From positions 646-64,645 of the forward strand of contig DAIDHL010000005.1 in assembly GCA_027459745.1 (NCBI GenBank): a stretch of DNA of 64,000 nt. Direction: 5' to 3'. The stretch is from Candidatus Levyibacteriota bacterium (GTDB lineage: Bacteria > Patescibacteriota > Microgenomatia > Levybacterales > UBA12049). Positions 6,722-61,600 of this stretch are shown piece by piece. The number at the start of each line of letters is the position of its first letter. Positions within the stretch are counted from its first letter, which is position 1. The position numbers and the translations under genes were made by a program. A model generated the notes under the pieces. It had not been told where the DNA came from and made no database searches. It saw nothing but the letters and a program-made list of their open reading frames with translations.

Positions 6722-6728
6722 TTGCTTA

Positions 6729-8429: not shown

Positions 8430-8435
8430 ATGTTC

Positions 8436-30373: not shown

Positions 30374-31960
30374 CTAGCATCCGACATTTAATTTTTGTCC
30401 AGGATAAATAAGAGAAGATTTTAAATCATTTTTTTGCATAATGTTTTTGGAAAATATCCCCTCCCCTAAGTTATTATTTGCAATTTCCCATAAACTATCT
30501 CCAGGTTGAACTGTATAGGTTAGACATGCAGTTAATTTCCCTTTATTAGTAAAAACACCCAAAACATTCTTTGATATCGAAGAATTTATATTTGAACTGA
30601 ATGGAAAAACATTAACTGAAACGACTTGCGACCAATTCCCCGGCATGCACCCATTTTGTCCTCTTACTTTGAAATACCATGTCCCGGCAAAAAGATCATT
30701 AATAGTATATGCAATAACTCCACTTATCTCTGGATTATTCAATGTTGTCCCAAATCCAATTGCAGAACTATCTAATCCATAACTTATATAATACCTTGTA
30801 TTTCCACTCAGTATTGGTACAAAATATAATGTTGCAGTAGTACCGGTTGAATTTACTTGAAATAAATTAGGTGCAATTGGTACAGTTCCTCCACAACCCG
30901 ATGGACTTGACGAATTAGACGAAGTATTTGATGATGACGATGGCAAAGTGGTGGGGGTTGGATTAGTTGCTTGCCATTGAAAAACGGGATAGACTGTCCC
31001 ATTATTTGAATTACTCCAGATCGTGTTAAAGTCCCAGTTATTCATGGGTGGATTTGTTACTGTATAAAAATAAGAAAGCGTCGTCTCAGATGTACATTGG
31101 TAATCTCCCGTCTGATAACAGTTGCTTGGGGAACCGGTTGTTTTATACCAGTAATCAGCTGTAGGGTTTCCACCTGATATCCCAACCAGCCCTCCTCTAT
31201 TTGTTACGCTTTGATCTACACTTCCAGTACTAAAACTATAAGAAATTGATCCACCGTTTTCCACATATCCAACTAGGCCTCCTATCGTACTGCCACCCGT
31301 TATATTTCCAGTTGCATATGAATTTGAAATATCAGCCGTACCACCATCATCAACACCTACCAAACCTCCTTCATCTCCAGAACCAGTTGACTGAACATTT
31401 CCCGTGGCATAAGAATCACTCACTGTTCCAAAATTATAGCCTACAATCCCCCCACCATTGGGATGAAGCCCTCCGTCGGTTCCGTAAATATCTACATTAG
31501 AGTATGATTTGGTTATCGACCCTTCACTTACTGCTGCTATTCCACCCATATTACCAACAGAACTACCTCCAGTGACACTGCCGCTTACATAGCCTACTTT
31601 TGTTACGACACCACTGCTTCCGATATAGCCAAATATACCTACATACAATTGGTTCTTATTTATAGTCAAATTCGTAATTTTGTATTCATTCCCATCGTAA
31701 GTACCAGTAAACTTGCTAGAACTAGATCCAATGGGGGTAAAATCATACCCTGTACAATCAATATCATTTTGTTGTTGATAATAAGAACTCAAGCTGTTGG
31801 CAACTTCTTGCAATTGTGCACATGTGGTCACTTGATACGGACTACTACTTGTGCCACTACCTGATCCGGAAAACGCAAAAGCTGAGGTCGTTGTAAAAAG
31901 AGAAAATAGGGAAATACTAATCGTACATAAGAAAATATTTAGCGGTTTATTTATGTTCAT
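30374..31960 (-). CDS. Secreted Gly/Ser-rich surface protein with C-terminal LysM peptidoglycan-binding domain
   Basis: 528 aa. Signal peptide 'MNINKPLNIFLCTISISLFSLFTTTSAFA', repeated glycine-rich 'GG(I/L)VG...G' beta-strand motifs, and C-terminal LysM 'YTVQPGDSLWEIANNNLGEG...YPGQKLNV'. Confidence 0.7.
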   Translation of the reverse strand: MNINKPLNIFLCTISISLFSLFTTTSAFAFSGSGSGTSSSPYQVTTCAQLQEVANSLSSYYQQQNDIDCTGYDFTPIGSSSSKFTGTYDGNEYKITNLTINKNQLYVGIFGYIGSSGVVTKVGYVSGSVTGGSSVGNMGGIAAVSEGSITKSYSNVDIYGTDGGLHPNGGGIVGYNFGTVSDSYATGNVQSTGSGDEGGLVGVDDGGTADISNSYATGNITGGSTIGGLVGYVENGGSISYSFSTGSVDQSVTNRGGLVGISGGNPTADYWYKTTGSPSNCYQTGDYQCTSETTLSYFYTVTNPPMNNWDFNTIWSNSNNGTVYPVFQWQATNPTPTTLPSSSSNTSSNSSSPSGCGGTVPIAPNLFQVNSTGTTATLYFVPILSGNTRYYISYGLDSSAIGFGTTLNNPEISGVIAYTINDLFAGTWYFKVRGQNGCMPGNWSQVVSVNVFPFSSNINSSISKNVLGVFTNKGKLTACLTYTVQPGDSLWEIANNNLGEGIFSKNIMQKNDLKSSLIYPGQKLNVGC

Positions 31961-33625: not shown

Positions 33626-34090
33626 TTGTCTTCGTTTCAACTGTATATTTGTTATATTCTAATTATGCAAAAAGGAACCTATAAAAGCTTTAGCCTTTTG
33701 TTTATCATCGTCATCCTAAACTATATGGCCCAAATCCCTTATGACATCCATTTATATGCGGGTAGATTTAATCCTATCGGCGCTGTAATGTTGGTTGGTA
33801 CTCTTCTATGGTTTTTGATAGGATTTAATTTAGTTTTAAAACAGAGCAGAATGGGATACTGGCTCTTATTCTCCTTCCTCGTGGTGCAATTTCTATTTTA
33901 TTTCCACGGGCAAATTATTTTAATGCTGTGGGGTTACGGTCTTTTTTATCATTTACTACGCTTCAACGATATGATTCTCTGGTGGGTATTTTTTATCGGT
34001 GATGTAAATTTTTTTACGGCTGCATTTTACATTTATTATCTGTGGAAAAAAAGAAAATCATTAATCAAAAACCATATTAACAAATCTTGA
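33626..34090 (+). CDS. Hypothetical integral membrane protein
   Basis: 154 aa ORF with about 4 hydrophobic helices. Likely start at 'MQKGTYKSF'. Confidence 0.4.
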   Translation: MSSFQLYICYILIMQKGTYKSFSLLFIIVILNYMAQIPYDIHLYAGRFNPIGAVMLVGTLLWFLIGFNLVLKQSRMGYWLLFSFLVVQFLFYFHGQIILMLWGYGLFYHLLRFNDMILWWVFFIGDVNFFTAAFYIYYLWKKRKSLIKNHINKS

Positions 34091-34442
34091 GTCTATAACC
34101 TAGTGGGACTAAATTTACCAGCTTCTTTACAATTCTATCTCCGACCTTAAATTGATCCCAAATTTCTTTACCCACAACTACAGATTTTTCAGTTCCTTCC
34201 TCTGTTTTTACAACCAACGTATACACGATATATGAACCGTCTTTGACTCCTTCCTGTCCTTCTTCATTTTTTCGGGCAATAATTCCCTGATATGCCTGCT
34301 TTTTGGTATTTGCAATAACTAACCACACCACAACCACGCAAAGAACTAAAGTTCCGACAATTGTTGCAATGACTGCTATCATACCCGTAGACATAAAAAA
34401 GATTTTATCGCAAAACGAGCATAAATTTTCCCTCATTAACAT
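34077..34442 (-). CDS. Hypothetical single-pass membrane protein
   Basis: 121 aa. N-terminal TM 'GMIAVIATIVGTLVLCVVVVWLVIA' plus a soluble C-terminal domain. Confidence 0.4.
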   Translation of the reverse strand: MLMRENLCSFCDKIFFMSTGMIAVIATIVGTLVLCVVVVWLVIANTKKQAYQGIIARKNEEGQEGVKDGSYIVYTLVVKTEEGTEKSVVVGKEIWDQFKVGDRIVKKLVNLVPLGYRLKIC

Positions 34443-34636
34443 CTCCTAACCCAAACTTTGTAAATATAACTGCAAACATGTTTTGTATTTAGAAATTTAA
34501 ACATTACAAATATTTTATAAGACGCTATTGTTAATACTGAATATTGCAATACCCGAGCCTATACGATAGAATGCAAAAAGTAAAAAACAAAACTATATCA
34601 AAGAAAAGAATTATAAACTTAATATAACCTACATCT

Positions 34637-36958
34637 TTGGAAAGAGGGGCAAAACTAGTGAAAATTCACAAAAAACAGCATGCAAATGTTAAAAAACGGC
34701 AGTGGGGCACAGAAGAAAACATAACCTCACTCCCAATTTTACATGACAAACCATCATTACTAAAAATCGCACTGAGTAGAGTAGCTATTGTACTTACTGT
34801 GGTCTTTTGGTTGATGTATATCGTTTCCACAATCTTAAGACAATTTTTAGATGGTTCAGGCAATTATGAATTTACTATGGAAGCCTTCAGTTACGCCCTA
34901 ATTGTAACTTTTCTCACATTTTCCGCCCTGATGTATTTGATTGCCCGTCAAGGAGCCTTTCAGCGATTCAGCAAGCATGTGCGTGTACCCCGTTCTATAC
35001 TTGATAAGCACTTTACGACAAATCAACCAACAATTACCGTCTTAATCCCCTCTTATGCAGAAGAACTTGCAGTGATTAGAAAAACTATCCTCTCGGCTAT
35101 GTTACAAGAGTATCCACATATTCGCATAGTGCTACTTATGGATGACAATCCATACCCAAAAGATGCCGTAAATTTAAAACGAGTTAATCAAACTCGTGAG
35201 CTTATTAAAGATTTACAAATATTGCTGGACAAGCCATATAAACACGTCTCACATGCATTAGCCACATTTGAAAAGTTTAAAGCTAAAAATAAGATAATTT
35301 CTTTAAGTAATATTAAGGATTTAGCTAACGAATACGAATGGGCAGCCAACTGGTTAAATAAGTTTGCCGATGAAGAGTTAATTGAAGATCATGTTGATAA
35401 ATTTTTCACTGAACAAGTACTGCGGGAATTGGCGAAAGATCTACAATTAGTTTCTCATGCACTTCAATTGTCCCTCAAAGACCAAGCAAAACTTTCATCT
35501 GAGCGTATACATCAGCTTTATCGCAGATTAGTATGGATCTTTGGTGCTGAACTGAAGATTTTCGAACGTAAAAAATATGCTTCTTTATCTCATGAAGCAA
35601 ATAAGGCTATGAATCTTAATGCTTATATCGGATTAATGGGTAAAACGTACCAGTGCGAAGAAACAGTAGATGGCACGATCCTCATACCGACTGAGCAGAA
35701 AAACCCTAATAATATTATAGTTCCGGATAGCGATTTTATACTTACACTTGATGCTGATTCTATACTGCTTCGCGACTATTGTTTACGTCTGGTATATTTT
35801 TTACAACAACCTGACAATGCCCATGTAGCTGTAACCCAAACTCCCTATTCTTCTTTCAGGGGAGCATACTCACGTATTGAAAGATTGTCAGGGGCAACCA
35901 CTGATTTACAACATATTCTGCATCAGGGCATGAGTCAATATGGAGCAACTTTTTGGGTAGGAGCAAACGCTGTCATCAGAAAACGTGCACTGGAAGATAT
36001 TGCTATCCGGGAATGGGTAGGGGGTTTTGAAGTGAAACGCTTTATTCAAGATCGTACCGTCATAGAAGATACAGAATCGAGTATTGACCTGGCAAGTCAT
36101 GGTTGGACACTAGTTAATTATCCAGAAAGATTGAGTTATAGCGCGACACCACCTGATTTTGGTGCACTAGTTGTTCAGCGTCGACGGTGGGCCAATGGAG
36201 GATTATTAATTCTTCCCAAACTTTGGTCACAACTCACCGTGCGCAAAAATCGTAATGAGATTATTTCACGCACTGAAATAATGCTAAGAATAAACTATAT
36301 GGCCTCTATATGTTGGGCAAGCTTTGGACTAATCTTTCTACTTGCATTTCCTTATGACGGTCGCTTACTTAGTCCCTTAGTGTTGTTAGCTGCACTTCCC
36401 TACTTTATCGCCATGGCTTATGATTTAAAATATTGCGGATATAACTATAGCGATGTGATTAGAATTTATGGTTTTAATCTTATTCTCCTACCAGTAAATT
36501 TGGCCGGGGTGTTAAAATCGATTGAACAAGCCTTAACAGGCAAAAAAATTCCCTTCGCACGCACACCCAAGGTAAAAAATAGAACCTCAGTCCCTTTGCT
36601 CTATCTGGTTGTTCCTTTATTTATTGTCGCATTTTCTCTTTTTACACTCTGGCGAAATATAGAAAGCGCGAATATAGGTAATGCCCTGTTTGCAGGCTTT
36701 AATGCAATAGTGGCTACCTGGGCGATAGTGGCATATATAGGTATTATTAATTTATTGGCAGATTTATGGAGAGGTTTAACCAGTTGGTTATATGTGGAAC
36801 ACAAGTCCAAGACCCTAATCCCGCCCCCTACCCAAACTTCAGGAGTAGACTGGAAGGTTGTGCTTTATCATGGCGAAGACAAAGGTACAGTGCCTCATAC
36901 ATTTCTAAGAGAAATTGCAGACGAATCTAATTACCCTAAAGGAGGCTTTATTCGATGA
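34637..36958 (+). CDS. Processive family-2 beta-glycosyltransferase (cellulose/chitin-synthase superfamily) with N- and C-terminal membrane domains
   Basis: 773 aa. N-terminal TM helices, DxD 'LTLDADSIL', 'VIEDTESSIDLASHGWTLVNY' (TED/EDR-like motif) and 'QRRRWANGG' (QxxRW, identical to the chitin-synthase QRRRW signature). About 6 C-terminal TM helices. No obvious PilZ domain. Likely real start is GTG 34658 with RBS 'AGAGGGG' upstream. Confidence 0.8.
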   Translation: MERGAKLVKIHKKQHANVKKRQWGTEENITSLPILHDKPSLLKIALSRVAIVLTVVFWLMYIVSTILRQFLDGSGNYEFTMEAFSYALIVTFLTFSALMYLIARQGAFQRFSKHVRVPRSILDKHFTTNQPTITVLIPSYAEELAVIRKTILSAMLQEYPHIRIVLLMDDNPYPKDAVNLKRVNQTRELIKDLQILLDKPYKHVSHALATFEKFKAKNKIISLSNIKDLANEYEWAANWLNKFADEELIEDHVDKFFTEQVLRELAKDLQLVSHALQLSLKDQAKLSSERIHQLYRRLVWIFGAELKIFERKKYASLSHEANKAMNLNAYIGLMGKTYQCEETVDGTILIPTEQKNPNNIIVPDSDFILTLDADSILLRDYCLRLVYFLQQPDNAHVAVTQTPYSSFRGAYSRIERLSGATTDLQHILHQGMSQYGATFWVGANAVIRKRALEDIAIREWVGGFEVKRFIQDRTVIEDTESSIDLASHGWTLVNYPERLSYSATPPDFGALVVQRRRWANGGLLILPKLWSQLTVRKNRNEIISRTEIMLRINYMASICWASFGLIFLLAFPYDGRLLSPLVLLAALPYFIAMAYDLKYCGYNYSDVIRIYGFNLILLPVNLAGVLKSIEQALTGKKIPFARTPKVKNRTSVPLLYLVVPLFIVAFSLFTLWRNIESANIGNALFAGFNAIVATWAIVAYIGIINLLADLWRGLTSWLYVEHKSKTLIPPPTQTSGVDWKVVLYHGEDKGTVPHTFLREIADESNYPKGGFIR

Positions 36959-38535
36959 GTAGTACACAAAGAAAATTATCCTGGTGGAGAGTGTGCTTGA
37001 TGCTATTTATGTTGTCAGCAATCACGGCAGGGGGGATATTTATGTGGATAGAATGGAAACAAGCTAAAGCTGTAGTAAAACCACAGGCATGGTTTGCCCC
37101 TTATGTGGATGTGACCGCAACTCCTTTATTTTCCTTTGAACAAATGGGCAGCTCATCAACTCCAAATGTAGTTTTAGCATTTATAGTCGCTTCATCTTCT
37201 AATCCATGTATACCAACATGGGGAAATGCTTATACACTAAATCAGGCTAGCATAGCATTGGATCTGGACAGAAGAATTGCCCGTTTGAGACAACAAGGCG
37301 GCAATGTAGCTATCTCCTTTGGTGGACAAGCCAATAATGAATTATCCTTCAGTTGCACTGATACCAAGCAATTATTCAATGCTTACCAAGCAGTTATTCA
37401 ACGCTACAAAATCGACACCATCGACCTGGATATCGAAGGAAGTGATCTAAGCAACATAGCAGCCTTAGATCGTCGTGCAGAAGTTATTGCTAAACTACAA
37501 AAAAGTATACGCTCCCAAAAGAAAAATCTAGCTGTCTGGTTAACTTTACCGGTATCCCCGCAAGGATTAACTCTAGACGGAGCTAATGTGGTGGACAAAT
37601 TTTTAGCTGCAGGTGTAGATATCGCTGGAGTAAATGCTATGACTATGGATTATGGCAATAGCAGAAGTCCCCACCAAACTATGGCTCAAGCTTCTGAGCA
37701 AGCCTTGGTGGAAACACATCGTCAGCTTGGTATTTTATATAAACAAGCTAAAATAAATCTTAACAGTACCACCTTATGGAGCAAAATTGGCGCCACGGTT
37801 ATGATTGGGCAAAACGATATTATAAATGACATTTTTACACTTGATGATGCGCAAAAGCTAAATTCTTTTGCACGTTCGGAGGGAATGAGTAGAATATCAA
37901 TGTGGTCAGCCAACCGGGATATTCAATGCGGAGTAAATTATGTGGATACACAAATTGTTTCTGATTCATGTAGTGGAGTGAAACAAAATAAACAACAATT
38001 TGCTAGCTTACTTAGTTATAAGTTAACTGGTGATTTCACTCATAATTCTCAGGTCATAACTATTCAAGATGCCGGAGCCAATGTGCAAAAACCTGATGAC
38101 CCTGGTAAAAGTCCTTATCAAATTTGGAACTCAACTTCCGTCTATCTACAAGGAACTAAAGTTGTCTGGCATAGGAATGTTTATCAAGCCAAATGGTGGA
38201 CGCAAGGTGATTTACCGGACAATCCGGTTTTAGAATCTTGGCAAACTCCCTGGCAACTTATTGGCCCTGTCTTACCTGGGGAAAAACCAATTCCTCAACC
38301 TACCTTACCCCCAGGTACATATCCTACCTGGTCTGGTACACAAATATATGATGTGGGAATGAGAGTGCTTTTTAACGGTGTTCCTTATCAGGCAAAATGG
38401 TGGAACCAAGGAGATAGTCCTGCCGCTTCAAGTGCCAATCAAGACAGCTCACCTTGGTTAGCATTGACTCAAAGTCAAGTTAACACTCTGATTCAAACTA
38501 TCAATGCTACTAAATCAGCCACCGTTAAGAAATAG
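36955..38535 (+). CDS. Membrane-anchored GH18-like glycoside hydrolase (chitinase-like) with two C-terminal CBM5/12 (ChtBD3) chitin-binding domains
   Basis: 526 aa. N-terminal TM anchor. 'ISFGGQ' and 'KIDTIDLDIEGSD' (DxxDxDxE GH18 catalytic motif with one substitution). Two repeats 'Y..G..V...NVYQAKWWTQGDLP' and 'VPYQAKWWNQGDSP' match CBM5/12. 4-bp ATGA overlap with the synthase. Confidence 0.75.
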   Translation: MSSTQRKLSWWRVCLMLFMLSAITAGGIFMWIEWKQAKAVVKPQAWFAPYVDVTATPLFSFEQMGSSSTPNVVLAFIVASSSNPCIPTWGNAYTLNQASIALDLDRRIARLRQQGGNVAISFGGQANNELSFSCTDTKQLFNAYQAVIQRYKIDTIDLDIEGSDLSNIAALDRRAEVIAKLQKSIRSQKKNLAVWLTLPVSPQGLTLDGANVVDKFLAAGVDIAGVNAMTMDYGNSRSPHQTMAQASEQALVETHRQLGILYKQAKINLNSTTLWSKIGATVMIGQNDIINDIFTLDDAQKLNSFARSEGMSRISMWSANRDIQCGVNYVDTQIVSDSCSGVKQNKQQFASLLSYKLTGDFTHNSQVITIQDAGANVQKPDDPGKSPYQIWNSTSVYLQGTKVVWHRNVYQAKWWTQGDLPDNPVLESWQTPWQLIGPVLPGEKPIPQPTLPPGTYPTWSGTQIYDVGMRVLFNGVPYQAKWWNQGDSPAASSANQDSSPWLALTQSQVNTLIQTINATKSATVKK

Positions 38536-38769: not shown

Positions 38770-39279
38770 TTATATGTCCAGATATTCAACCGGAGTTTCA
38801 TATTGCTTTGCATATTCTAAAATCGAGGAGTACAACTCTTGAGGAATTTTACCTTTTAACTCTTCAGGAGATTTACCTACCAACAATTCACTTTTTTGGG
38901 AGTTAACTAGATAATCCCCACTTTCTTTCCATTCCTTTTTATTTGTAAGCAAACTTGCTTTGCAAATAGTTCCCAACCATACAGCCCAATTTTCTTTTTG
39001 TGTACGATAGATATTAGCTTTTAAAAACCAAATTTTATCATCGCTAAACCCACTCCATTTACCGATACGAGAACCAATAAAACGCTGTTCACGTTCAGCT
39101 CCGTCTACGCCAACCTTGAGACCAATTTCCTCCATGTCTTTTTGTTTATCCTCCTGACGGGCAATGAATTCACGCAGAGCACGCACAATAACTGAGGAAA
39201 GAGCCTCACCGGCTATAGTTTTAGCCTGCTCGAAGAGTGACTCATCCTTTTCACTTACATAAATAGTCTTATTTGCCAT
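38770..39279 (-). CDS. EXLDI-family protein with ribbon-helix-helix-like N-terminus
   Basis: 169 aa. N-terminus 'KTIYVSEKDESLFEQAKTIAGEALSSVIVRALREFIAR' has an RHH (beta-strand plus two helices) pattern. C-terminus ends '...PVEYLDI', matching the EXLDI motif that names that family. Preceded by a consensus promoter and palindrome. Confidence 0.5.
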   Translation of the reverse strand: MANKTIYVSEKDESLFEQAKTIAGEALSSVIVRALREFIARQEDKQKDMEEIGLKVGVDGAEREQRFIGSRIGKWSGFSDDKIWFLKANIYRTQKENWAVWLGTICKASLLTNKKEWKESGDYLVNSQKSELLVGKSPEELKGKIPQELYSSILEYAKQYETPVEYLDI

Positions 39280-40033: not shown

Positions 40034-41371
40034 GTGAAATCGATCAGCCATAAGAAAAACAGTTTACAAGTATCTAACTTCATAAATATTCCTTTTCTAC
40101 TGAAGCATAAAATACAAATTGCTATGTTTTTATTATTTATTGTATTTATCATCCTGCGTTTTATTTTATTAACCCAGAGGGCAAATTTAGGCTGGGATCA
40201 AATTGATAGTGCCTGGGCGGCTAAAAGCATTCTGGTTGATAAACATATTTTTATGTTAGGACCAGTTGCCAAAGGTAATAGTGGTATTTATATAGGTCCA
40301 TTATATTTTTACTTGATTTCTATTTTCTATTTTTTTACCAATTTGAATCCCATAGCCTCACCCATCTTCCAGGGAATTTTAAGCATAGTTAATTTGTTAG
40401 TTTTATTTTTCATTGTCAAAAAAATGTTCAATCTCAATGTTGCGTTTATTGCCTGTTTTATAAATACATTTACTCTTTTTATTATGAATTCTGACCGTGG
40501 ACAAAGTGACTTCTATTTAATTGTTCCGACATCATTGGTTATTTTTTATTTTCTATACAAAGTCATAACCAATCATGCAAAATATATCATTTATCTGGCA
40601 ATAGCTGTAGGTCTTTCATTTCATGTCGATTTTACCTCAGTATATTACCCACTAATAATATTATTGGCTCTACCTTTCTTCCCGAGAACTAAAGCTACCT
40701 TGAAATATATTCTAATTTCCATACCAGTATTTTTACTCTTTTTAGTTCCTTCGATAGTTGCCGATATAACCCTAAAACATTCAACTCCAACTAATTTAGT
40801 TTATCTTTTTAATAATTATTATCATGGACTACATTTGGCAAGAATTATACAACTAACTAAAGATGCCGTTATAAGTGGAACTGAATTATGGCCATTCGCC
40901 ATGTTATCTCCAACTATTCTTACTCCCCTTACATTTTTAATATATGTCTTATTTATGTTTGTATATTATAAAAAAAACAAGAACAGAAATAGCCTCCTTC
41001 TTTTTTACCTTATAGGGCTATGGATAATCATTCCCTGGTTAATTATGTCTACTTATAGTGGAGAGATAACAGACTATTATTATTCAGTATCCAGAGATCT
41101 TTTTATTTTTGCCTTATCATACATTATCTATATACTTTACATTCAAAAAGTTATTGCTGCTAAATTAGTAATAATTGTTATTGGACTAATATATGCTTTT
41201 TATAATATCCAGCTTTTCTGGCACGAAGGGAATGGCAATTTTCTCTCGGTCGAAAACAATGTTAAACAAGCAGTAGCTCATAATCAACTTATACCCTATG
41301 GAAGCCATGATCCTAACTACTATGTACAATATGTATATTTAAGAGATAAAAAATTAGGAATTAAGTATTAA
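40034..41371 (+). CDS. Polytopic membrane protein, GT-C-like; paralog of 10064..11401
   Basis: 445 aa, identical length to its paralog. 'NLGWDQIDSAWAAKSILVDKHIFMLGPVAKGNSGIYIGPLYFY', 'NYYHGLHLARIIQLTKDA' and 'YSGEITDYYYSVSRD' are collinear with the 10064 gene. Confidence 0.5.
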   Translation: MKSISHKKNSLQVSNFINIPFLLKHKIQIAMFLLFIVFIILRFILLTQRANLGWDQIDSAWAAKSILVDKHIFMLGPVAKGNSGIYIGPLYFYLISIFYFFTNLNPIASPIFQGILSIVNLLVLFFIVKKMFNLNVAFIACFINTFTLFIMNSDRGQSDFYLIVPTSLVIFYFLYKVITNHAKYIIYLAIAVGLSFHVDFTSVYYPLIILLALPFFPRTKATLKYILISIPVFLLFLVPSIVADITLKHSTPTNLVYLFNNYYHGLHLARIIQLTKDAVISGTELWPFAMLSPTILTPLTFLIYVLFMFVYYKKNKNRNSLLLFYLIGLWIIIPWLIMSTYSGEITDYYYSVSRDLFIFALSYIIYILYIQKVIAAKLVIIVIGLIYAFYNIQLFWHEGNGNFLSVENNVKQAVAHNQLIPYGSHDPNYYVQYVYLRDKKLGIKY

Positions 41372-53172: not shown

Positions 53173-56100
53173 CTACGGTGTTCCGGTCAGCGGAGCGAAC
53201 ATCATCGCGGCATTGTTGCTATACAACATTTTTACTTGGGTCTGCGTTAGTGCGTAATTATATAGTCTTACATCATCAATTTGACCTTTAAAATAATTCC
53301 CATCTTGTCTCGCTCCGATACGCAAGCCGGCAGCATAATTGGCAAGCGTTTTGGTCATAGTTGCTGTACCAATAGATACGCCATTAACATACATAACTGC
53401 TGCTGTACCAGCTTGAGTTATTACAACATGTGACCAAGTATTTAGAGGCAAACTATAATTTACTGACATGAGTGAGGCGCCGGTGTTACTTACTACCCAG
53501 ACGATTTGTTGCGTGCCACTGTTGTTGTACATTTCCAACACATAACCAGTTGTATTACCAGCATCATCGCGTTTATCGATGAGTCCATATACATTTCCAC
53601 TTGTTGGGTAGGAGCTAGGTTTTACCCAAAATGAGAGCGAAATATTGGAAGGCGTAAGCGCTGTATTGTCGGGTATGTTGGCATAATCATCGGTACCATC
53701 AAAGTTGAGGCTGGAATTGAATTTGCCATTCACTCCATTGTACCAAGCAGATGTAGATAATCCATCATTGCACGTCCCGGGAGATGTTTGTGAACCACTC
53801 GCACCAATAGTCAATGTTCCGTTGTATCCATTACCTGAGCTATCCCCAAGCAGATTTCCCTGACAGTCATCAAATTTCCACCAAGCCAACGGCGCTCCAC
53901 GATTATAATCCCAAAGGATTTGGGCAGCGCTTCGAGCATAACCATAAATTTTAAAACCTGAAATATAACCCTGTAAATAACCTCCACCTGTTTCTGCATC
54001 CGGCGCTCCTAAGAGAATGCCTTCTGTAACACTGGGTAATACTCCACTCAGTGAACCAGTTCCATCAGCATTCCCATCAACATATGTTCTAACCGTTGTG
54101 CCATCCCATGCACCAACTATAAAATGCCAATGATTATCGTTTATAGTACGAGATGTTACTGAACTTGCAGCTGATCCGCCGGAATTAAATGGAGTAAAAC
54201 GCAAAGTTCCATTCTGAGCTAGCAAAAATTGCCATACTCTAGTAGATGTTGTTGACATGTCTCTATTAACGATTTGATTTCCATAGCTGGTACCTGGCAC
54301 TTGAGATGTTTTTATCCAACCTTCGATAGTAACATAACTCATAGTGGGTAAACTTGATATGCCTACATAATTATTTGAACCATTAAGATAGGATAATTCT
54401 TGCTCAAGTCCATTAGGTCCTTTCGTAAAAAACCATTGATTTCCCAGAGTTCCATTCCAGGTACCATTATTTCCATTACCACTTGTATCATTAACTGTAA
54501 TCCCTTGTCCTTCTTGAAAATTCCACTCTCCCACTGGCGCAGCACACGAAGATGTATCACCTGGGACACAATATAGTTGATTTTGCGCTTGCGGCTGGTA
54601 GGTAGAAGAAGTACCCAAGACGCCGGCGGTAACACTCGAGCCTTGGTTGTAATAATCAGACTTAATTTGCCCTGCTGTGAGAGAATAGTTATACACTCTG
54701 ACTTCATCAATCGATCCATCCCAGATAAAATTACCGCTATTGGTGAAATTTCCAATATACGTTTCCGTAATTGGATTACTTAAGAATGTTCCATTCCAAG
54801 AAGATGTTGCACTCAGCGCACCATTGACATACAGAGACAATGTGCTGGTAGAGCTATTTGCAACCGCCGTGAGGTAATACCATTTCCCAATCGTCGGAGT
54901 AAAGTTAGCTTCTACCTCTGTCCAGATATTACCACTTTGGTCTATACCTGTGCGGAATTTATTACTAGTATCTCTTTCAATATTTAAGATTGATCCTATG
55001 GAATTATTCTCTGCATAGATCGCATTTTCTGTCCCGTCGTTATCATTAGACTTGACCCAGGCGCTAATCGTAAAGTTACTGGTATTCGCAACGATAGAAC
55101 CATTATAAGGAACGGCATACTGACTACTGCCATTCAGACTGAGTGCTTTCCCATTCACCGCGTCATTGGTCCACACCGGAGTACCGACAAGTGATGCATC
55201 ATAGGTACTTCCACCACTCCCACTATTGTGAGCAGTCGTGCCATAACCTTCATTAAATTTCCAATAACCTACTGGCCCAGCCCGGCTCCCAGCATCTACC
55301 AAATTGGTATCTCCTTCATTCATACCCTGCAAGACCTGAGTTTGAGAAATAGGATAATTATATATTTTTACTTCATCCATACTCCCGATGAAATGATTAT
55401 TCCCGTTCACATCAGTTCCCATATAAAGTGGCACACCTTGATTTAACAAAAAACTACCGGCTGAAGAGAGATCAGCTGTTGCTGGATAGTTTATTCCATT
55501 GACATACAGACTGATTGATGAACTTGCAGCGTTCCATACCATTGTAATGTATTGCCATTTTCCACCCGTCATAGTTGTATTTGTATGCACATTTAACTTT
55601 CCACCACTTGTATACACAGCCGCACACAAACTTTGCCCGGTTGCACCACTATATGCATTTCCACATTCTGAGATTACCCAACCATAACCTGTTGAGCTGT
55701 TTTGTGCAGCAAATATTTTTTGGGATACATTACCAGTTGGAGGTAATATCCAAGCAGACAGAGAAAAACTACCTGCGTTAAATGATGTACTGGTAGAGTT
55801 AGGAATGGAAATATTAGTAGTTCCGGGGAAAACACCTACTTCACTGTCAAACGCACCATACTTGCTAAAGGAATAATTTGAACTGGACCAAGTTCCATTA
55901 TTTCCATAACCTGATAAATCTTTTAATGTGTTTCCACTTCCTTCCTCAAAGTTATAGTATGCCACAGGCCCGGGCGTGTAACTATATAAATTCTGTACAT
56001 CTGTACTAGATAAAACACGGTTATAAACACGCATTTCATCAATCGATCCATTAAAAACTGCTCCTGCCCCATATGTGGCACCAATTTCGATGTTATAACT

Positions 56101-58644
56101 TGTAGTTATCGATGAAGTCAAACTATCATGTATAACAGTCATTGCTAATAATTTATTATCCAGGTATATTTTCATTCCAGCGGCTTTGCTAGATCCATCA
56201 TATGTCTCTACAATATGATGCCATTTACCATCATTCACAGTCACCGTACTTTGCTCGGAAATGAGGTTCGTGGTAGCATAATTGCTCGTCAAGCCCACTA
56301 TAATATAACCCGAGCTAGTTAATTGCAAATCCCATCCTTGATAAGCTGGCCCTCCTCCAGCTTTGGCAATAATAACAGGATTGGTAGAGACATTACTCGT
56401 CTTAATCCAATTACTTATAGAAAAAGTGTTCGTTCGGTCAAAGTTCATGCTACTGACATTGCCAGCATTTATATATTGAGTCGTCCCATTAAATGTTCCT
56501 GCATCTCCATATACACCACCTACAGTGGGTGTGCTACTATAACCCACGCCTGTCGCATTATTGCCATTCCCACTTGAATCAGTTACTTCACCAGAAACAT
56601 TATTATATGAGGCCTCATCCATTTTATAGTATGCTAACAAACCATTACTTAAAGTATAATTAGTTGACACGCCTAAAACTTCGCTTCCACTAATCGTAGT
56701 TCCACGACTGTTATAATCAGCCAGCACTTGTCCCAAAGATCTTGCATATCTATAATATTTCACCTCATCAATATATCCCTGAAAGTACTGTACATTGCCC
56801 ATTGCATACCCAATGTACGCACCCCCCAGAACTGTAGTTAAAGTGGTCGAAATACTTCCCGCATTCACGCCATTGATATACGCAGTTAAGACAGAACCTG
56901 TATATGTTAATTCAACGTGATTCCAATAATTTAAATTTAATTTTGAATTAGTAGTTAAAATATCATTACCATATCTGCCAATTTTAAGAGATCCATCCCC
57001 AGCCGCGCCATTTTCAGCAATAATCAGAGCATTATTGGTACCACTGGTTCCATAGGCAAAAGGAGTACCATAATTACCGGAAGCAAAAACAGTTGGTTTT
57101 ACCCATAGAGAAACAGAAAATGGATTGGCACCGGAAGCAAATTTACTGTCAGAAGCCGTAACGGCACTGCTGGCTCCATCAAAATACAAACATTTTCCGC
57201 TTATACATTGACTCTCTTGCTGCCAGGTAGGCTTTGTGGTACCGGATAACGTGGCATTATTTTTATTCGATGTGCTGTCATATGCTGTAACACCTTGCCC
57301 ATCATCAAATTTCCAATACGACACCGGTGCAGTACCCACCTCTTCTGATTGGAGAGAGTAGGTTATGTTATCGCCCGCTGTTTGAATAGCATAAGTATTT
57401 TTATAATCTAAGGCTACTTGTTGAGGGGTACGAACGTTATTATAAACGTGTACATCGTCTATCTGACCATTAAATAAACTGTCACCCGTCCATGAATTAT
57501 AACCGCTAATTTGCACAGGACCAGTGGTTAGTACACTACCACTAAGTGTATTAAACTGTGTAGTTGTAGATTGAGCTACGCCATCAATATATATAGAGAT
57601 TCCAGATGGAGAAGAGTTACCATTATATGTCGCAACTACATAATGCCAACTACCATTATTGACAGTTCCGGTTGTGTTGACTGATAGCTCATTTGAACTA
57701 TATGTATTAGTTAAATTAAGATTAACAGTACCCGATGTTGTTACTAAAAAAAAGATTCCCGGCCAAACGTTATTGGTTGTAAGAGCCTTGGAGTAAATAA
57801 TTTGCTGAGCGCTTGATGAGGTTTTAATCCAAGCTGTCAAACTAAAAGTATTGGTCTTGTCAAAAGCTAGAGTACTAACATTACCCATAGAAAGATATGC
57901 ATTGGTCCCATTGAATGTAGCATCTGAGCTATAAACTCCTGTTCCCCAGCTAGTTGTCCCACTCCAAGAACCATTATCAGCATATGCTGTAGAATCAATT
58001 GCTGATGTACCACTACCGTCATTCAATGTCCAATATCCCAGTAACCCGACTACATTATCAAAACCTTGAGTGGTTGAACCGGCTTTGGCGCTGGGGTTTC
58101 CGTAATACATATAAATATTATTAGTACCCGCTTGGAGACTATCGATCATTACCCAAACTTTGGTCGATGTTGTATTACAGCCCGAGTCAATATAATAACT
58201 TAAATTCTTCCCGCCTTCATTCGTAAAGCGTAGATCCTGACAATTGCTTTGCAATTTACCGGCAGAAATAAGTGTAGAAGTATTAAGTGCAAATGATTTC
58301 TGTATATTACTAACCGTAGCTCCTGTTGAATTGGTCACAATAATTCCTTCGCGATATGACCAATTGTTATCAAACCAAGCAGCTTGCACTGGTTTGATAT
58401 TTAACATTACCGTTATAAAACCTATCATCGAGAACAGAAAAAGAGAACCAATTATCAAGTATGAGTATTTGGTATGTGGTATTTTGTATTTGGTACGCAA
58501 CCCTTTCGTCATTGCAAGGAATCCCGATTTATCGGGAGACCGAAGCAATCTAGTCAATGATCTATTCTTTCTAGATTGCTTTACTAATGTTCGCAATGAC
58601 AGATTTATTTTAATTTTTAATAAATTCTTAAATCTTAATTTCAT
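53173..58644 (-). CDS. Giant membrane-anchored surface protein: DUF2341 domain followed by about 8 LamG (concanavalin-A-like lectin, Laminin_G_3) domains
   Basis: 1823 aa. N-terminal TM 'YLIIGSLFLFSMIGFITVML', then 'AAWFDNNWSYREGIIV' (the DUF2341 WxxxWxxR motif). Repeated LamG C-terminal motifs: 'FNGQIDDVHVYN', 'FNGSIDEMRVYN', 'FIGSMDEVKIYN', 'WDGSIDEVRVYN', 'LQGYISGFKIYGYARS', 'FKGQIDDVRLYN'. Alternative start 'MTKGLRTKYK' at 58512. Confidence 0.8.
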   Translation of the reverse strand: MKLRFKNLLKIKINLSLRTLVKQSRKNRSLTRLLRSPDKSGFLAMTKGLRTKYKIPHTKYSYLIIGSLFLFSMIGFITVMLNIKPVQAAWFDNNWSYREGIIVTNSTGATVSNIQKSFALNTSTLISAGKLQSNCQDLRFTNEGGKNLSYYIDSGCNTTSTKVWVMIDSLQAGTNNIYMYYGNPSAKAGSTTQGFDNVVGLLGYWTLNDGSGTSAIDSTAYADNGSWSGTTSWGTGVYSSDATFNGTNAYLSMGNVSTLAFDKTNTFSLTAWIKTSSSAQQIIYSKALTTNNVWPGIFFLVTTSGTVNLNLTNTYSSNELSVNTTGTVNNGSWHYVVATYNGNSSPSGISIYIDGVAQSTTTQFNTLSGSVLTTGPVQISGYNSWTGDSLFNGQIDDVHVYNNVRTPQQVALDYKNTYAIQTAGDNITYSLQSEEVGTAPVSYWKFDDGQGVTAYDSTSNKNNATLSGTTKPTWQQESQCISGKCLYFDGASSAVTASDSKFASGANPFSVSLWVKPTVFASGNYGTPFAYGTSGTNNALIIAENGAAGDGSLKIGRYGNDILTTNSKLNLNYWNHVELTYTGSVLTAYINGVNAGSISTTLTTVLGGAYIGYAMGNVQYFQGYIDEVKYYRYARSLGQVLADYNSRGTTISGSEVLGVSTNYTLSNGLLAYYKMDEASYNNVSGEVTDSSGNGNNATGVGYSSTPTVGGVYGDAGTFNGTTQYINAGNVSSMNFDRTNTFSISNWIKTSNVSTNPVIIAKAGGGPAYQGWDLQLTSSGYIIVGLTSNYATTNLISEQSTVTVNDGKWHHIVETYDGSSKAAGMKIYLDNKLLAMTVIHDSLTSSITTSYNIEIGATYGAGAVFNGSIDEMRVYNRVLSSTDVQNLYSYTPGPVAYYNFEEGSGNTLKDLSGYGNNGTWSSSNYSFSKYGAFDSEVGVFPGTTNISIPNSTSTSFNAGSFSLSAWILPPTGNVSQKIFAAQNSSTGYGWVISECGNAYSGATGQSLCAAVYTSGGKLNVHTNTTMTGGKWQYITMVWNAASSSISLYVNGINYPATADLSSAGSFLLNQGVPLYMGTDVNGNNHFIGSMDEVKIYNYPISQTQVLQGMNEGDTNLVDAGSRAGPVGYWKFNEGYGTTAHNSGSGGSTYDASLVGTPVWTNDAVNGKALSLNGSSQYAVPYNGSIVANTSNFTISAWVKSNDNDGTENAIYAENNSIGSILNIERDTSNKFRTGIDQSGNIWTEVEANFTPTIGKWYYLTAVANSSTSTLSLYVNGALSATSSWNGTFLSNPITETYIGNFTNSGNFIWDGSIDEVRVYNYSLTAGQIKSDYYNQGSSVTAGVLGTSSTYQPQAQNQLYCVPGDTSSCAAPVGEWNFQEGQGITVNDTSGNGNNGTWNGTLGNQWFFTKGPNGLEQELSYLNGSNNYVGISSLPTMSYVTIEGWIKTSQVPGTSYGNQIVNRDMSTTSTRVWQFLLAQNGTLRFTPFNSGGSAASSVTSRTINDNHWHFIVGAWDGTTVRTYVDGNADGTGSLSGVLPSVTEGILLGAPDAETGGGYLQGYISGFKIYGYARSAAQILWDYNRGAPLAWWKFDDCQGNLLGDSSGNGYNGTLTIGASGSQTSPGTCNDGLSTSAWYNGVNGKFNSSLNFDGTDDYANIPDNTALTPSNISLSFWVKPSSYPTSGNVYGLIDKRDDAGNTTGYVLEMYNNSGTQQIVWVVSNTGASLMSVNYSLPLNTWSHVVITQAGTAAVMYVNGVSIGTATMTKTLANYAAGLRIGARQDGNYFKGQIDDVRLYNYALTQTQVKMLYSNNAAMMFAPLTGTP

Positions 58645-58685: not shown

Positions 58686-61600
58686 CTAGTTAATGATCCA
58701 CCAGTTAAAGACAACCGGCGTATTCTTTGGCGTGTCCATATCAACGGTAAATGATGTTTTGGCTGACTTCTTAGTTACATATAACGCTCCTGATCCCTTG
58801 GTTTGTGAAGTCACAAAAATAAGCGAAGTTGATGAAACAATATTGGTAGGAATCGTTACACTAGTCAGACCTGCAGAAATTGTCGCCACTCCCACACTTG
58901 GATTCAAAGCATCAGGTGTAATATTTACCTTGCTGGCAGTTAATGTTCCCTGCAAGCTTACATCTCCCGTCGTACTAATTATTACACTGCTACCTTCCAA
59001 TTGAATGTCAGCTAAAGCTTCTGACTGTAATTGCAAAGGCTGACCAAGACTATCAATCTTGCCATTTAATCCATCGATTGTAATCAAGCCGTCAGTAATT
59101 ATTCCAGTCACTCCTACATCATTAAGAGTAGTTCTCCCACCCACCATCAGATCACCAGAAATTGTGGCTGTCTTGATATCCAGTTGGTCCGAGCTAGCAA
59201 AATTAGCTGAACCGGTGGCAAATAATTGATTTGGTAATGCGCTCATGGTAGCATTTTCCAAAGCTGATAATCGAGCAGACAGTGAGGCAATCAAGGCTGC
59301 GTGGTCATCAAGTGTGGCATGGATGGCAGTATTATCTGTTTGCAAACCAGCGACTTGTTGCTCTAAGGTTGGCGTACCCGTGGTACCAGAATTAGGCGTG
59401 GTGGTCGAAACATTTCCACTACTGGTTATATATACGGTTGGATCATACCAAGACACATTTGAATAGACGAGAATTGTCCCTACATCATTGGGGTTAGAAT
59501 CGCTATAAATAGCTAATGCTCGACCGATAATTACTCCTGCAGCAGTTGCTTTGACTGCCACTCCGGGAGTAGATGAGGATGTCAAAGGATCACCAACATT
59601 AATTGTTCCATTTGCACTACTCACATTCACGGGAACTCTTCCAACCAAAGCGACTGGATATAAATTTGGATGAGTAGAATCAGTCTTGGCTTCTGAGTTA
59701 ACAGTTACACCAGGACTACTGGAAATTATTCCCAGTAACCCAGTTTGATTTTGAGAAGTGGCCTTTACAATAGCATTGGAATTACCGTCATTTGCCATAA
59801 CTACCACATCGCCAGGAATAAGTGTTTGAGAAGAAATATAATTTTCCGCTACGTCTGCTCCAGTAATTGTCGTCGAAGTAGCATAAATAGTTCCTGCTGT
59901 ACTTCCGGAACACGCGGTAGACATCGTTGCCTTCACACAAAGAGACGCGACGATACGTGTATTACCGCTATTATCAATTCTAAAGAGAGGCGTCCCAGAT
60001 GAACTGGCAGTAAATATATCTGCTGATTCTGTTTGATTGAGCGTTAAGAGAGCCTTGCCAAATACTTGACTGTTTGTCATATAGGCTTGACCAAACAAGT
60101 TTGGCGCGATTGGCGGATTTTGCGCCCCCAAGACAAATTGTCCGGAAACAGTGGCCGCCCCTGTAGTCATAAATGATTCAGCATCCGCTACCACCATACC
60201 CTTGTTGTATGGGTCTAGAATCAAATTACTCGAATTGAACGGTTCACCCGGACGAATATAAATATTGGAAGAAGACTTAATAAATGAATTCATCGGATTG
60301 GTCAAATTAATATCATATGCCACAGATAAATCACCCGGTGTAGTCACTTGTAATGGTTCACTGGCAATGACCTGATTTTGTGTCACAGCAAACACACTGG
60401 TGCCGGCATTTTGTACATTGAAGATATTAGTTAGAGTTCCATTAGAACCCACATTCAAATCCAATAAATCACCCGTGGCAGTAGTAGCAACCGTGGGGTT
60501 CCATGCGAGACTTGACAAGCCACCCGTAAAGGCTGAGTTACCGGTATAGCTAAGATTTAACAAACTGCCTGAAGTCAAAGCATTTGAATTGGAAACCAAT
60601 GAAAGTTCATTGCCGGTAGTTAATAAATTGGCACTAAGAGTAGCCACGTTGCCGGTGGTTTCGGAACTGGTTTGAATTAAATCACCATTATATACGTTGA
60701 ATGCGAATTTGGCAGAAGAGGTTGCGCTACCGCCAAATAACACATCTTGCGTTAAATTACCTTCGGTTATCAAAGCACCAGTCGAATTAAATGGACTACT
60801 GCCTCCTCCACCACCACCCGGACAACTGGCACTACCTGTGACAATACCATTTACAGTGGTGACACAAGCCGCACTGGCAATCGTCGCCCCGGCATTACCA
60901 TTCATCGTCAAACTCCCTGTGGACAAAGCCAAAACTCCTGTCCCATTGCCAGCCTTCAAGGTCAGATTGCCAGTCGTCGCATTCCCGATATTCAAACCCT
61001 GGTTGGCAGTGGTAGCCAAAGTACCATCGGCAGTAATATATAATCCACCAGCTACTCCGGCCGAAATACTTGCAACTGGTGTTCCTGAATTCACATTTAT
61101 GAAAGCAAATTTAGCTGAGGGAGTAGAAACTCCTCCAAGCAGTAAATCTTGTGTGGTAATAGCCTCGCTTATTGTCCCTCCGATAGAGTTTAAAATATTT
61201 GCTCCACCGCCACTTGGACAAGCACCACTTCCGGTAACAATACCACCTACTGTCGTGACACAACCGGCACTTGCAATCGTCTGTCCTACACTACCACCAG
61301 CATAAAAAGTATTGGCAAAAATGTTCCTAAAAGCTATTGCACTCGTACCCAAATCTGTAACGTTATTACTGTTTGGACCTACATACCCACCAGCTATATT
61401 ATTTAAAGGTGCTAATAAAATATTTCCAGTTGTAGCAGAACCAAGCGTCAAGCTATGATCGTTGGTCGTAGCCAAAACTCCCAACCCAGTCAGATAGGCT
61501 GCATTATTTCCACTAGCCGCAGAGATACTGGCAGTAGGAGTTCCCGAATTAATATTTATAAATGCAAAATCTGCCGAAGCTGTTGAAGTTCCACCCAACA

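Follow-up and report, generated by a model that had tools for sequence, protein, structure and literature searches.

The stretch of DNA analysed here, referred to as the window, comprises 64,000 nucleotides of a Candidatus Levyibacteriota contig (DAIDHL010000005.1) with a GC content of approximately 35%, and it carries a two-gene cassette predicted to encode a processive glycan synthase of glycosyltransferase family 2 (GT2) and a membrane-anchored chitinase of glycoside hydrolase family 18 (GH18) with carbohydrate-binding modules (CBMs). The GT2 gene, listed with 773 amino acids and recognized from the open reading frame (ORF) listing, Pfam, and an AlphaFold2 model, extends over 34637..36958, while the GH18 gene, encoding 526 amino acids with an N-terminal anchor and two C-terminal CBM5/12 modules (ORF, Pfam, homology), extends over 36955..38535; both lie on the forward strand, as do all the features given for them below. 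The ATG of the GH18 gene (36955-36957) overlaps the TGA of the GT2 gene (36956-36958) as ATGA, and a Shine-Dalgarno sequence for the GH18 gene, AGGAGG, is contained in the last part of the GT2 gene (36940..36945), with 9 nt separating it from this ATG. The listed start of the GT2 gene is a TTG at 34637, and an in-frame GTG is situated at 34658 with the purine-rich GAAAGAGGGG located 8 nt upstream of it. Because of this element, and because the alignments with GT2 homologues begin at approximately residues 10–20 of the listed protein, the TTG start is doubtful, and the true start may be the GTG, which would give a protein of 766 instead of 773 amino acids. Upstream of the gene, a promoter-like site (TTGCAA-17-TAGAAT, 34544..34572) matches the consensus at 9 of 12 positions, which is weak evidence, being a consensus match only in a region where such sites are no more numerous than expected after shuffling. 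Scans of the whole window with Rfam (at the gathering threshold) and for tRNAs returned nothing in or beside the cassette.

When one genome per species was scanned, at least 575 stretches encoding GT2 relatives were obtained, and the best 80 of these, encoding proteins 61–69% identical to the window GT2, were taken as related loci. They belong to Patescibacteria (Saccharibacteria, Woesebacteria, Collierbacteria, Dojkabacteria, Moraniibacteriota, WWE3, and others), to Ktedonobacteria, and to Microbacteriaceae (Leifsonia, Humibacter, Frigoribacterium, and others). A GH18-CBM gene follows the GT2 gene in 79 of the 80 loci, and the one exception stops at a contig end. Overlap or near-abutment was kept in most of the 78 loci in which both genes were readable, mainly as an overlap of 4 nt or 1 nt, and the large negative junction values in high-GC loci are an artefact of the script's start-codon choice. 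The original prediction for this locus had described a translationally coupled operon encoding proteins of 773 and 526 amino acids, and these results, together with the ATGA junction and the ORF lengths, agree with it. The pair recurs on plasmids and across four or more bacterial phyla, and no third conserved gene accompanies it: tblastn searches with the neighbours in the window (the EXLDI protein, the DUF7489 protein, PMT_2 proteins, and others) gave matches in none of the 80 loci, clustering of all flanking ORFs revealed synteny only within Leifsonia, and the flanks of the cassette differ in two Patescibacteria-sized genomes. The regions flanking the cassette in the window, L081, and L083 yielded no genes for other hydrolases of families GH5, GH6, GH8, or GH9, for a BcsB-like partner, or for BcsZ. 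The pairing is kept through rearrangement, on plasmids, and over the divergence of the GT2, and the two genes are very probably functionally tied.

The plasmid copies show different arrangements. The GT2 gene was present on 14 Lactococcus lactis/cremoris records, 13 of them carrying it at full length with approximately 52.5–52.8% identity and one (H14) carrying it split across the record start, and on one Arthrobacter plasmid (pNicSoilB8, L085) with 55.8% identity; no carriage of the GT2 by phages was found. On the Lactococcus cremoris plasmid pG323 (L084), as on dairy plasmids of this kind, the GT2 gene is situated beside the proteinase genes prtP and prsA, and the GT2 gene is followed by the GH18-CBM gene. 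The deposited chitinase coding sequence of this plasmid begins at an internal codon (VDAT...), and the in-frame upstream sequence MKTKISFLRLFILLGIITVAG... (L084, 9310-9460) restores a membrane anchor, so that this gene has probably been annotated with too late a start. The Arthrobacter plasmid carries the orthologous GH18-CBM gene upstream of the GT2 gene in divergent orientation, with a second GH18 gene downstream.

Among the related loci, the cassette has a GC content of between 34% and 70% that tracks that of the host, from which the genes appear to be long resident; despite this residence the encoded proteins are above 55% identical, which suggests strong constraint. In a rough neighbour-joining tree, the window GT2 groups with copies from Woesebacteria and other Patescibacteria, the Microbacteriaceae and Arthrobacter plasmid copies form one clade, the Ktedonobacteria clade is nested among Saccharibacteria, and the Lactococcus copy is the most divergent. 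The placement of the window GT2, the GC content of approximately 35%, and the gene content all point to Patescibacteria as the origin of the window. The topology would fit an old cassette with its greatest diversity in Patescibacteria and occasional transfer between phyla. In 27 Leifsonia and Humibacter loci (among L024-L073), the cassette occupies the same chromosomal position, with shared ORFs approximately 2–5 kb upstream that were taken, from sequence reading alone, as housekeeping genes, one of them encoding a Der-like GTPase; this suggests vertical inheritance within Leifsonia despite the spread between phyla. The GT2 of L059, a record titled Streptomyces sp. L7 with a chromosome of 4.27 Mb, falls inside the Leifsonia clade beside L042, L056, and L051, and this placement, together with a chromosome that is small for Streptomyces, leads us to suspect that the record is mislabelled.

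Regarding the GH18 protein, a hydropathy scan, which was used to call the transmembrane (TM) segments of both proteins, revealed a single TM anchor at residues 14-32 (36994..37050), and the basic residues preceding this helix indicate that the remainder of the protein is probably extracellular. The catalytic domain occupies residues ~45-351 (37087..38007), as delimited by Pfam PF00704 (Glyco_hydro_18, 36.6 bits versus a cut-off of 29.6) and by matches to the solved structures 9buf, deposited as 'Exochitinase 1' (residues 45-351, E 5e-51), and 2dsk, a chitinase (residues 43-323, E 5.6e-22). It contains the catalytic motif DxxDxDxE as DTIDLDIEG at residues 154-162 (37414..37440), comprising D157, D159, and E161. 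The C-terminal part matches Pfam PF02839 (CBM_5_12) with 46.3 bits (cut-off 26.2) in two stretches. The first module (residues ~386-437, 38110..38265) contains YQAKWWTQG at residues 410-418 and was located by Pfam and by a match of residues 390-453 to 4txg, a chitinase; the second (residues 458-500, 38326..38454) contains YQAKWWNQG at residues 478-486, is the best Pfam stretch, and matches 2d49, a chitinase C binding domain. CBM5/12 modules typically bind chitin.

In an alignment of 40 GH18 homologues from five lineages, including the Lactococcus, Arthrobacter, Leifsonia, Ktedonobacteria, and Dojkabacteria copies, D157, D159, E161, the segment S121-F-G-G124, and W317 were invariant, as were Y410, A412, K413, W414, and W415 of the first CBM5/12 module and A480, K481, W482, and W483 of the second. 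The original prediction had recognized a membrane-anchored GH18 protein with an intact catalytic glutamate and two CBM5/12 modules, which the Pfam scan, the structural matches, and this alignment all support, but it had also expressed concern over a G-to-T change in the motif DGxDxDxE. This concern proved unnecessary, since D-x-D-x-E is invariant in the 40 homologues and the glycine is likewise missing from 9buf and 2dsk, which carry D-F-D-I-E where the window protein has D-L-D-I-E. The idea that the domain might be a non-catalytic lectin was also rejected on the basis of the invariant catalytic motif. The closest known likeness is to the small GH18 chitinases (the Pyrococcus furiosus ChiA type, 2dsk and 3a4w, as well as 9buf): the catalytic domain comprises only about 300 residues, aligns end to end with solved chains of 311-315 residues, and has in common with them D-x-D-x-E, SxGG, MDY, and a W-S-x-x-R-D at the end of the barrel. 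In contrast to these enzymes, the window protein is membrane-anchored, bears two CBM5/12 modules, and is obligatorily paired with a synthase. Judged by its motifs, it is a complete chitinase-type enzyme with two chitin-binding modules and is predicted to be competent.

The GT2 protein matches Pfam Glyco_trans_2_3 with an E-value of 1.4e-36, above the curated cut-off, as do Glyco_hydro_18 and CBM_5_12 for its partner. Its topology follows the original prediction of N- and C-terminal TM bundles flanking the catalytic domain. The N-terminal helix pair (residues 49-102, 34781..34942) consists of the segments 49-67 and 84-102 in the hydropathy scan and corresponds to the long helices 41-72 and 77-113 of the AlphaFold2 model, which was built from 46 homologues (pLDDT, a per-residue confidence score, 76.5; pTM, a global fold score, 0.77). 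The C-terminal bundle (residues 554-708, 36296..36760; model helices 545-718) contains five segments and is a putative glycan channel; in structure comparisons, it aligns with the channel-forming part of BcsA and of the hyaluronan synthases (HAS) over 387-469 residues.

Between the bundles lies a complete set of processive synthase motifs, whose conservation was judged in the same 46 homologues. In addition to the DxD, IEDTES, and QRRRW motifs that had been recognized previously, the first aspartate motif of the GT-A domain was located as MDDN at residues 168-171 (35138..35149), with D169 and D170 invariant and aligned to the DD of BcsA 'LCDDG'. The metal- and nucleotide-sugar-binding DxD motif is LDADS (35747..35761; D372-A-D374), aligned with BcsA 'FDADH'; FWVGAN (35951..35968) is the equivalent of BcsA FFCGS; the TED-type catalytic-base motif is IEDTES at residues 476-481 (36062..36079; E477, D478), aligned with BcsA 'ITEDAET'; and the acceptor-binding QxxRW motif is QRRRW at residues 514-518 (36176..36190), aligned with BcsA 'QRGRW'. 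All four are invariant. In the motif HEANKAMNLN (35591..35620), E320 and N322-N328 are invariant and H319 and A321 nearly so; it is presumably the counterpart of the nucleotide-binding motif HAKAGNLN of cellulose synthases. Likewise, FARTPK (residues 640-645, 36554..36571), in which F640 to K645 are invariant, falls in a non-helical stretch between TM helices of the model and presumably corresponds to the FxVTxK gating loop of BcsA and CesA.

Two further regions have a character of their own. Between the DD and DxD motifs, the model places a four-helix insert (residues ~177-302, 35165..35542; helices 177-215, 223-246, 252-281, and 288-302) with pLDDT values mostly of 84-97, and a value of 85.8 was obtained when residues 172-312 were modelled alone. 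A fold search with this stand-alone model against the PDB returned no match with an E-value below 0.4, and the notion that the insert resembles the P-CR of plant CesA, a positional idea only, was abandoned as no P-CR match appeared in that search. According to the model, this insert of approximately 130 residues is distinctive of the family. The second region is the disordered cytosolic C-terminal tail, which is poorly conserved except for DWKVVLYHG (residues 738-746, 36848..36874), where W739, Y744, and G746 are invariant and D738, L743, and H745 nearly invariant, and around which pLDDT falls below 50. In some GT2 relatives, an EAL domain comes after the tail equivalent to this DWxxVLYHG region.

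When the model was compared with the PDB using Foldseek, the nearest structures were those of BcsA (4p00, 9b8v; E 1e-12), with plant CesA8 reaching a query-normalised TM-score of about 0.5 and the hyaluronan synthases an E-value of about 1e-9. These matches support the processive membrane synthase proposed in the original prediction, and the GT2 is accordingly assigned to the BcsA/CesA/HAS fold class as an inverting, processive synthase integral to the membrane. Curated families did not provide a closer assignment. The best NCBIfam match was CelA (TIGR03030, 91.2 bits versus a cut-off of 699.1), with lower scores for PgaC_IcaA (TIGR03937, 51 bits versus 422.3), NF008558 (PRK11498, 48.7 bits versus 992), MdoH, and NodC (TIGR04242, 18.9 bits versus 550), all far below their cut-offs. 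No Chitin_synth Pfam match was found for the window GT2 at an E-value of 0.01 or better, and a few of its relatives match PF03142 below threshold (16-26 bits versus a cut-off of 27). The Chs/NodC/HAS clade is characterized by QxxRW plus a downstream (S/T)WGT(R/K) and also by a GKR motif; no WGT(R/K) string was seen in the GT2, where the conserved loop is FARTPK. By these criteria, the protein lies outside every curated family and is not a Chs-family chitin synthase. The description of the GT2 as chitin- or cellulose-synthase-like is therefore upheld in its cellulose-like half by the BcsA matches and not in its chitin-synthase half, and QRRRW, which had been read as a chitin-synthase signature, is weak evidence alone, with the other motifs being of the cellulose-synthase type.

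An exhaustive search of cluster representatives at 50% identity yielded 523 clusters at an E-value of 1e-30 or better, and full-length relatives, including the insert, reach down to about 35% identity. Several of these relatives carry additional C-terminal domains: EAL in four (46-49% identity), a carbohydrate esterase family 4 (CE4) polysaccharide deacetylase in six (37-41% identity), a LytR-CpsA-Psr (LCP) wall ligase domain in two, and Acyl_transf_3 and DMFA2_C in one each. The metagenomic protein P0247 (1345 amino acids) combines the GT2 with a complete GH18 domain and two CBMs, its GH18 part being 46% identical to that of the window. In L087, an EAL-fused GT2 (47% identity, 75% GC) is accompanied by a divergent GH18-CBM gene whose product is 42% identical and carries DVDVE, while in L088 the GT2 (41% identity) is overlapped downstream by a GH18-CBM gene whose product is 43% identical and carries DFDIE. 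Pfam detected no PilZ or other cyclic di-GMP (c-di-GMP) domain in the two window proteins, in agreement with the original prediction; a c-di-GMP receptor is thus absent from the window pair, yet EAL is present in the four relatives mentioned. Genes for c-di-GMP signalling were observed near the cassette in two Actinobacteria-like contexts: on the Arthrobacter plasmid pNicSoilB8, the GT2 gene has a GGDEF gene at a distance of 3 kb, and in L087 the gene for the EAL-fused GT2 is situated between response regulators of the HD-GYP (HD_5) and HDOD types.

The established systems that come closest to the cassette include that of BcsA and BcsZ. The window GT2 and BcsA are both membrane-embedded processive GT2 enzymes with DD, DxD, (T/I)ED, and QxxRW, presumably also sharing the motifs KAxNLN, FxxGx, and FxxTxK, BcsA is the best match in sequence and fold, and both operons encode a hydrolase beside the synthase. 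In contrast to BcsA, the window GT2 lacks PilZ, its C-terminal 50 residues forming a short disordered tail, has two N-terminal TM helices instead of four, and carries the four-helix insert; and the hydrolase is a GH18 with CBM5/12 modules, not the GH8 of BcsZ. Chs and NodC also belong to the GT2 superfamily of inverting, processive, channel-forming synthases, have the same QRRRW string, and would share the proposed product, β-1,4-linked N-acetylglucosamine (GlcNAc), but the window GT2 differs from them in the missing Chitin_synth match, the low NodC score, and the FARTPK where WGT(R/K) would be expected. GH18 enzymes cut β-1,4 GlcNAc linkages and are not known to cut β-1,6 ones. The poly-N-acetylglucosamine (PNAG) systems (PgaC/PgaB, IcaA/IcaB, MatB) likewise combine a synthase-dependent GlcNAc polymer with an extracellular modifying or hydrolysing partner, whereas the window GT2 scores only 51 bits against the PgaC_IcaA cut-off of 422 and its partner is a GH18 with chitin-binding modules. 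The chitin synthases described in some Proteobacteria are division-1 Chs genes acquired from eukaryotes (PMC5122149) and represent a different lineage from the window GT2. Streptomyces MatB, a GT2-CE4 fusion making PNAG (PMC5972031), resembles the six CE4-fused relatives in its architecture, as compared by description only, and provides a precedent for their function; its GT domain is reported to be PgaC-like (PMC5972031), and the possibility that these relatives belong to the MatB family was set aside, MatB being kept as an analogue only.

Taken together, the GT2 and the GH18 protein very probably work together on one secreted glycan. GH18 catalysis uses the 2-acetamido (N-acetyl) group of the substrate itself, as is established for the family, and since the CBM5/12 modules typically bind chitin, this glycan would most probably be β-1,4-GlcNAc if it is the substrate of the GH18 protein. 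Our preferred reading, to which we assign a probability of roughly 0.55, is that the pair makes a β-1,4-GlcNAc (chitin-like) polymer that is trimmed by its own chitinase. The idea of a chitin-like surface polymer is strengthened by the almost obligatory pairing in different phyla and by the CE4-fused relatives, which offer indirect evidence for N-acetylated sugars in the wider family. The GT2 would be situated in the membrane through its two N-terminal and about five C-terminal helices, with the GT-A domain facing the cytoplasm, and, as inferred from BcsA and the hyaluronan synthases, would extend a β-linked chain from a UDP-sugar and push it through its own channel. The GH18 protein would be translated from the same mRNA by coupling and held by its helix, with the catalytic domain and the CBMs outside; if it acts on the product of the synthase, that product would contain β-linked GlcNAc, and the anchored chitinase could hold the emerging chain by its CBMs and then trim, release, or length-limit it. 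Regulation might occur, speculatively, via the conserved cytosolic tail or the four-helix insert, no c-di-GMP sensor being present in the window copy. The two genes would then constitute a self-sufficient synthase-dependent exopolysaccharide module suited to single-membrane bacteria. Known synthase-dependent exopolysaccharide systems also encode a membrane processive synthase together with a hydrolase, and BcsZ, PgaB, PslG, and AlgL play a comparable hydrolase or lyase role for their own polymers, although the product specificity is inferred in the present case; by this analogy, the cassette would resemble such a system reduced to two genes, which would fit cells without an outer membrane.

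A number of observations weigh against this chitin-like product. The main counter-argument is that the GT2 itself holds nothing favouring GlcNAc over glucose: it is no closer to known GlcNAc polymerases than to glucan synthases, its NCBIfam scores decrease from CelA (91 bits) to PgaC (51) and NodC (19) while all remaining far under the cut-offs, and sequence searches of solved structures, with either the single GT2 or the 46-sequence profile, returned cellulose synthases only. A published chitin synthase structure also provided no usable rule for donor specificity. In the Foldseek comparison, chitin synthase structures, with E-values of 8e-5 to 2e-4, ranked far behind BcsA and the hyaluronan synthases, and KAMNLN, FWVGAN, and FARTPK are, as we understand these motifs, of the cellulose-synthase type and not of the GKR/WGT(R/K) type. 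On the side of the partner, binding to cellulose is known for some CBM5 modules. The main substrates of CE4 enzymes are N-acetylated polymers (chitin, PNAG, peptidoglycan), with acetylxylan in addition, and because acetylxylan and peptidoglycan are among these substrates, the CE4 fusions are no proof of a GlcNAc polymer. Finally, the P0247 fusion comes from one contig in which a sequencing error at the overlap is possible, and the GT2 of L089 (38% identity) has no GH18 neighbour, its partner being a cupredoxin.

A different explanation would be that the GT2 makes a polymer without β-1,4-GlcNAc (cellulose, another β-glucan, or β-1,6-PNAG) and the GH18-CBM protein targets environmental or host chitin or peptidoglycan, both being co-expressed for one lifestyle function such as matrix formation together with adhesion to surfaces of chitin or cell wall. 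Cellulose synthases are the closest relatives of the GT2 in sequence and fold, its motif set is BcsA-like, and peptidoglycan-acting GH18 enzymes are known in Bacillus spores. GH18 genes of Patescibacteria have moreover been read as chitin catabolism in a published survey (PMC9868632). We nevertheless consider this explanation unlikely: independent activities would not be expected to remain adjacent, with genes that usually overlap, in 79 of 80 loci and in four phyla, through rearrangement and at GT2 identities as low as 41%, no GH5, GH6, GH8, or GH9 enzyme is encoded next to the cassette in the window, L081, and L083, and the membrane anchor would hold the GH18 protein at the surface of the producer itself. 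It is also established that the operon-encoded hydrolase matches the polymer in known synthase-dependent systems.

Two other proposals retain the GlcNAc chain. In the first, only the purpose would differ: the cassette could be a NodC-like factory of short, soluble chito-oligosaccharides for signalling or re-uptake, the anchored chitinase cutting the growing chain to oligomers of defined size, with no structural polymer, an option made conceivable by the obligatory co-translation of the chitinase with the synthase and by a GH18 domain that lacks the insertion domain of deep-cleft processive chitinases, which suggests endo-type cutting. We regard it as improbable, given that tandem CBM5/12 modules with invariant aromatic pairs are typical of insoluble-chitin binding, that a full BcsA-like channel exceeds the needs of oligomer synthesis, and that the LytR-CpsA-Psr or acyltransferase fusions of some relatives point to a wall-attached or modified polymer; in its favour, chito-oligosaccharide output has been proposed for other bacterial chitin synthases (PMC5122149). 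In the second, the GH18 protein could act mainly as a transglycosylase grafting the GlcNAc chain onto the wall or other chains, or could lack catalysis and guide fibril assembly as a chaperone or lectin. Its anchoring beside the synthase with two CBMs and the LCP wall-ligase domains of some GT2 relatives, which suggest that wall attachment matters, would suit such a role, and many GH18 enzymes transglycosylate, but the complete hydrolytic motif set is invariant, the closest solved relatives are deposited as chitinases, and no sequence feature marks a transglycosylase, making this proposal the most doubtful to us, with very little chance of being correct.

The surroundings of the cassette in the window include several other genes related to the cell surface or glycosylation. 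Upstream, on the reverse strand, five tandem ORFs of 485-566 amino acids are located at 1221-9977, the two that were scanned encoding PMT_2/PTPS_related membrane glycosyltransferases (GT-C type), and a sixth PMT_2 gene is situated on the forward strand at 40034-41371, 1.5 kb downstream of the cassette; the two regions represent an unusual concentration of lipid-linked-sugar glycosyltransferases. A gene at 30374-31960 (reverse strand) encodes a protein of 528 amino acids whose hydrophobic N-terminus resembles a signal peptide and which carries GLUG repeats as well as a LysM domain at the C-terminus; it is probably a surface protein bound to the wall. Immediate neighbours are a small membrane protein with DUF7489 (34077-34442, reverse strand), divergent from the GT2 gene, and an EXLDI protein (38770-39279, reverse strand; TIGR04342, 60 bits versus a cut-off of 32), whose gene converges on that of the GH18 protein, both found in 0 of the 80 related loci. 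Further downstream on the reverse strand, an ORF of 1823 amino acids (53173-58644) contains seven Laminin_G_3 repeats, DUF2341, and a sialidase-N-like domain, and the adjacent ORF of 1745 amino acids (58686-63923) has no Pfam match; both giant proteins are probably surface proteins.

To our knowledge, chitin is treated as a eukaryotic polymer, and bacteria are known to make only the short backbones of Nod factors, with a few Proteobacteria bearing eukaryote-derived Chs. No description of the GT2-GH18 pair was found in the full-text literature, most subscription journals lying outside the literature covered. That a BcsA-like synthase should have a chitinase for its obligate partner, and this in minimal-genome organisms, would surprise a specialist, and, should the product be something else, the conserved pairing of such a synthase with a chitinase would still need explaining. 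Going beyond the preferred reading of a chitin-like polymer trimmed by its own chitinase, we tentatively propose, at somewhat less than an even chance, that the GT2 represents a prokaryote-native lineage of chitin synthases that arose from a BcsA-like GT2 branch independently of Chs and NodC and travels as a mobile two-gene cassette with its anchored chitinase, producing a chitin-like fibre in many Patescibacteria, Ktedonobacteria, Microbacteriaceae, and dairy lactococci; GH18 genes of the candidate phyla radiation would then be biosynthetic, possibly serving attachment or a sheath. A chitin-like product would mean that chitin synthesis is common in bacteria and has an origin separate from that of the eukaryotic enzyme, and the cassette would then provide a compact, two-gene, single-membrane system for the production of chitin or chito-oligomers in Gram-positive hosts, a version of the pair being already present on plasmids of food-grade Lactococcus. 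The GH18 genes of Patescibacteria have been assigned to chitin degradation in a survey of this group (PMC9868632), and in view of the cassette some of them, at least, could be read differently. With a chitin-like product, inferences on carbon and nitrogen cycling that count every GH18 gene as a marker of chitin degradation would need revision, especially in Patescibacteria.

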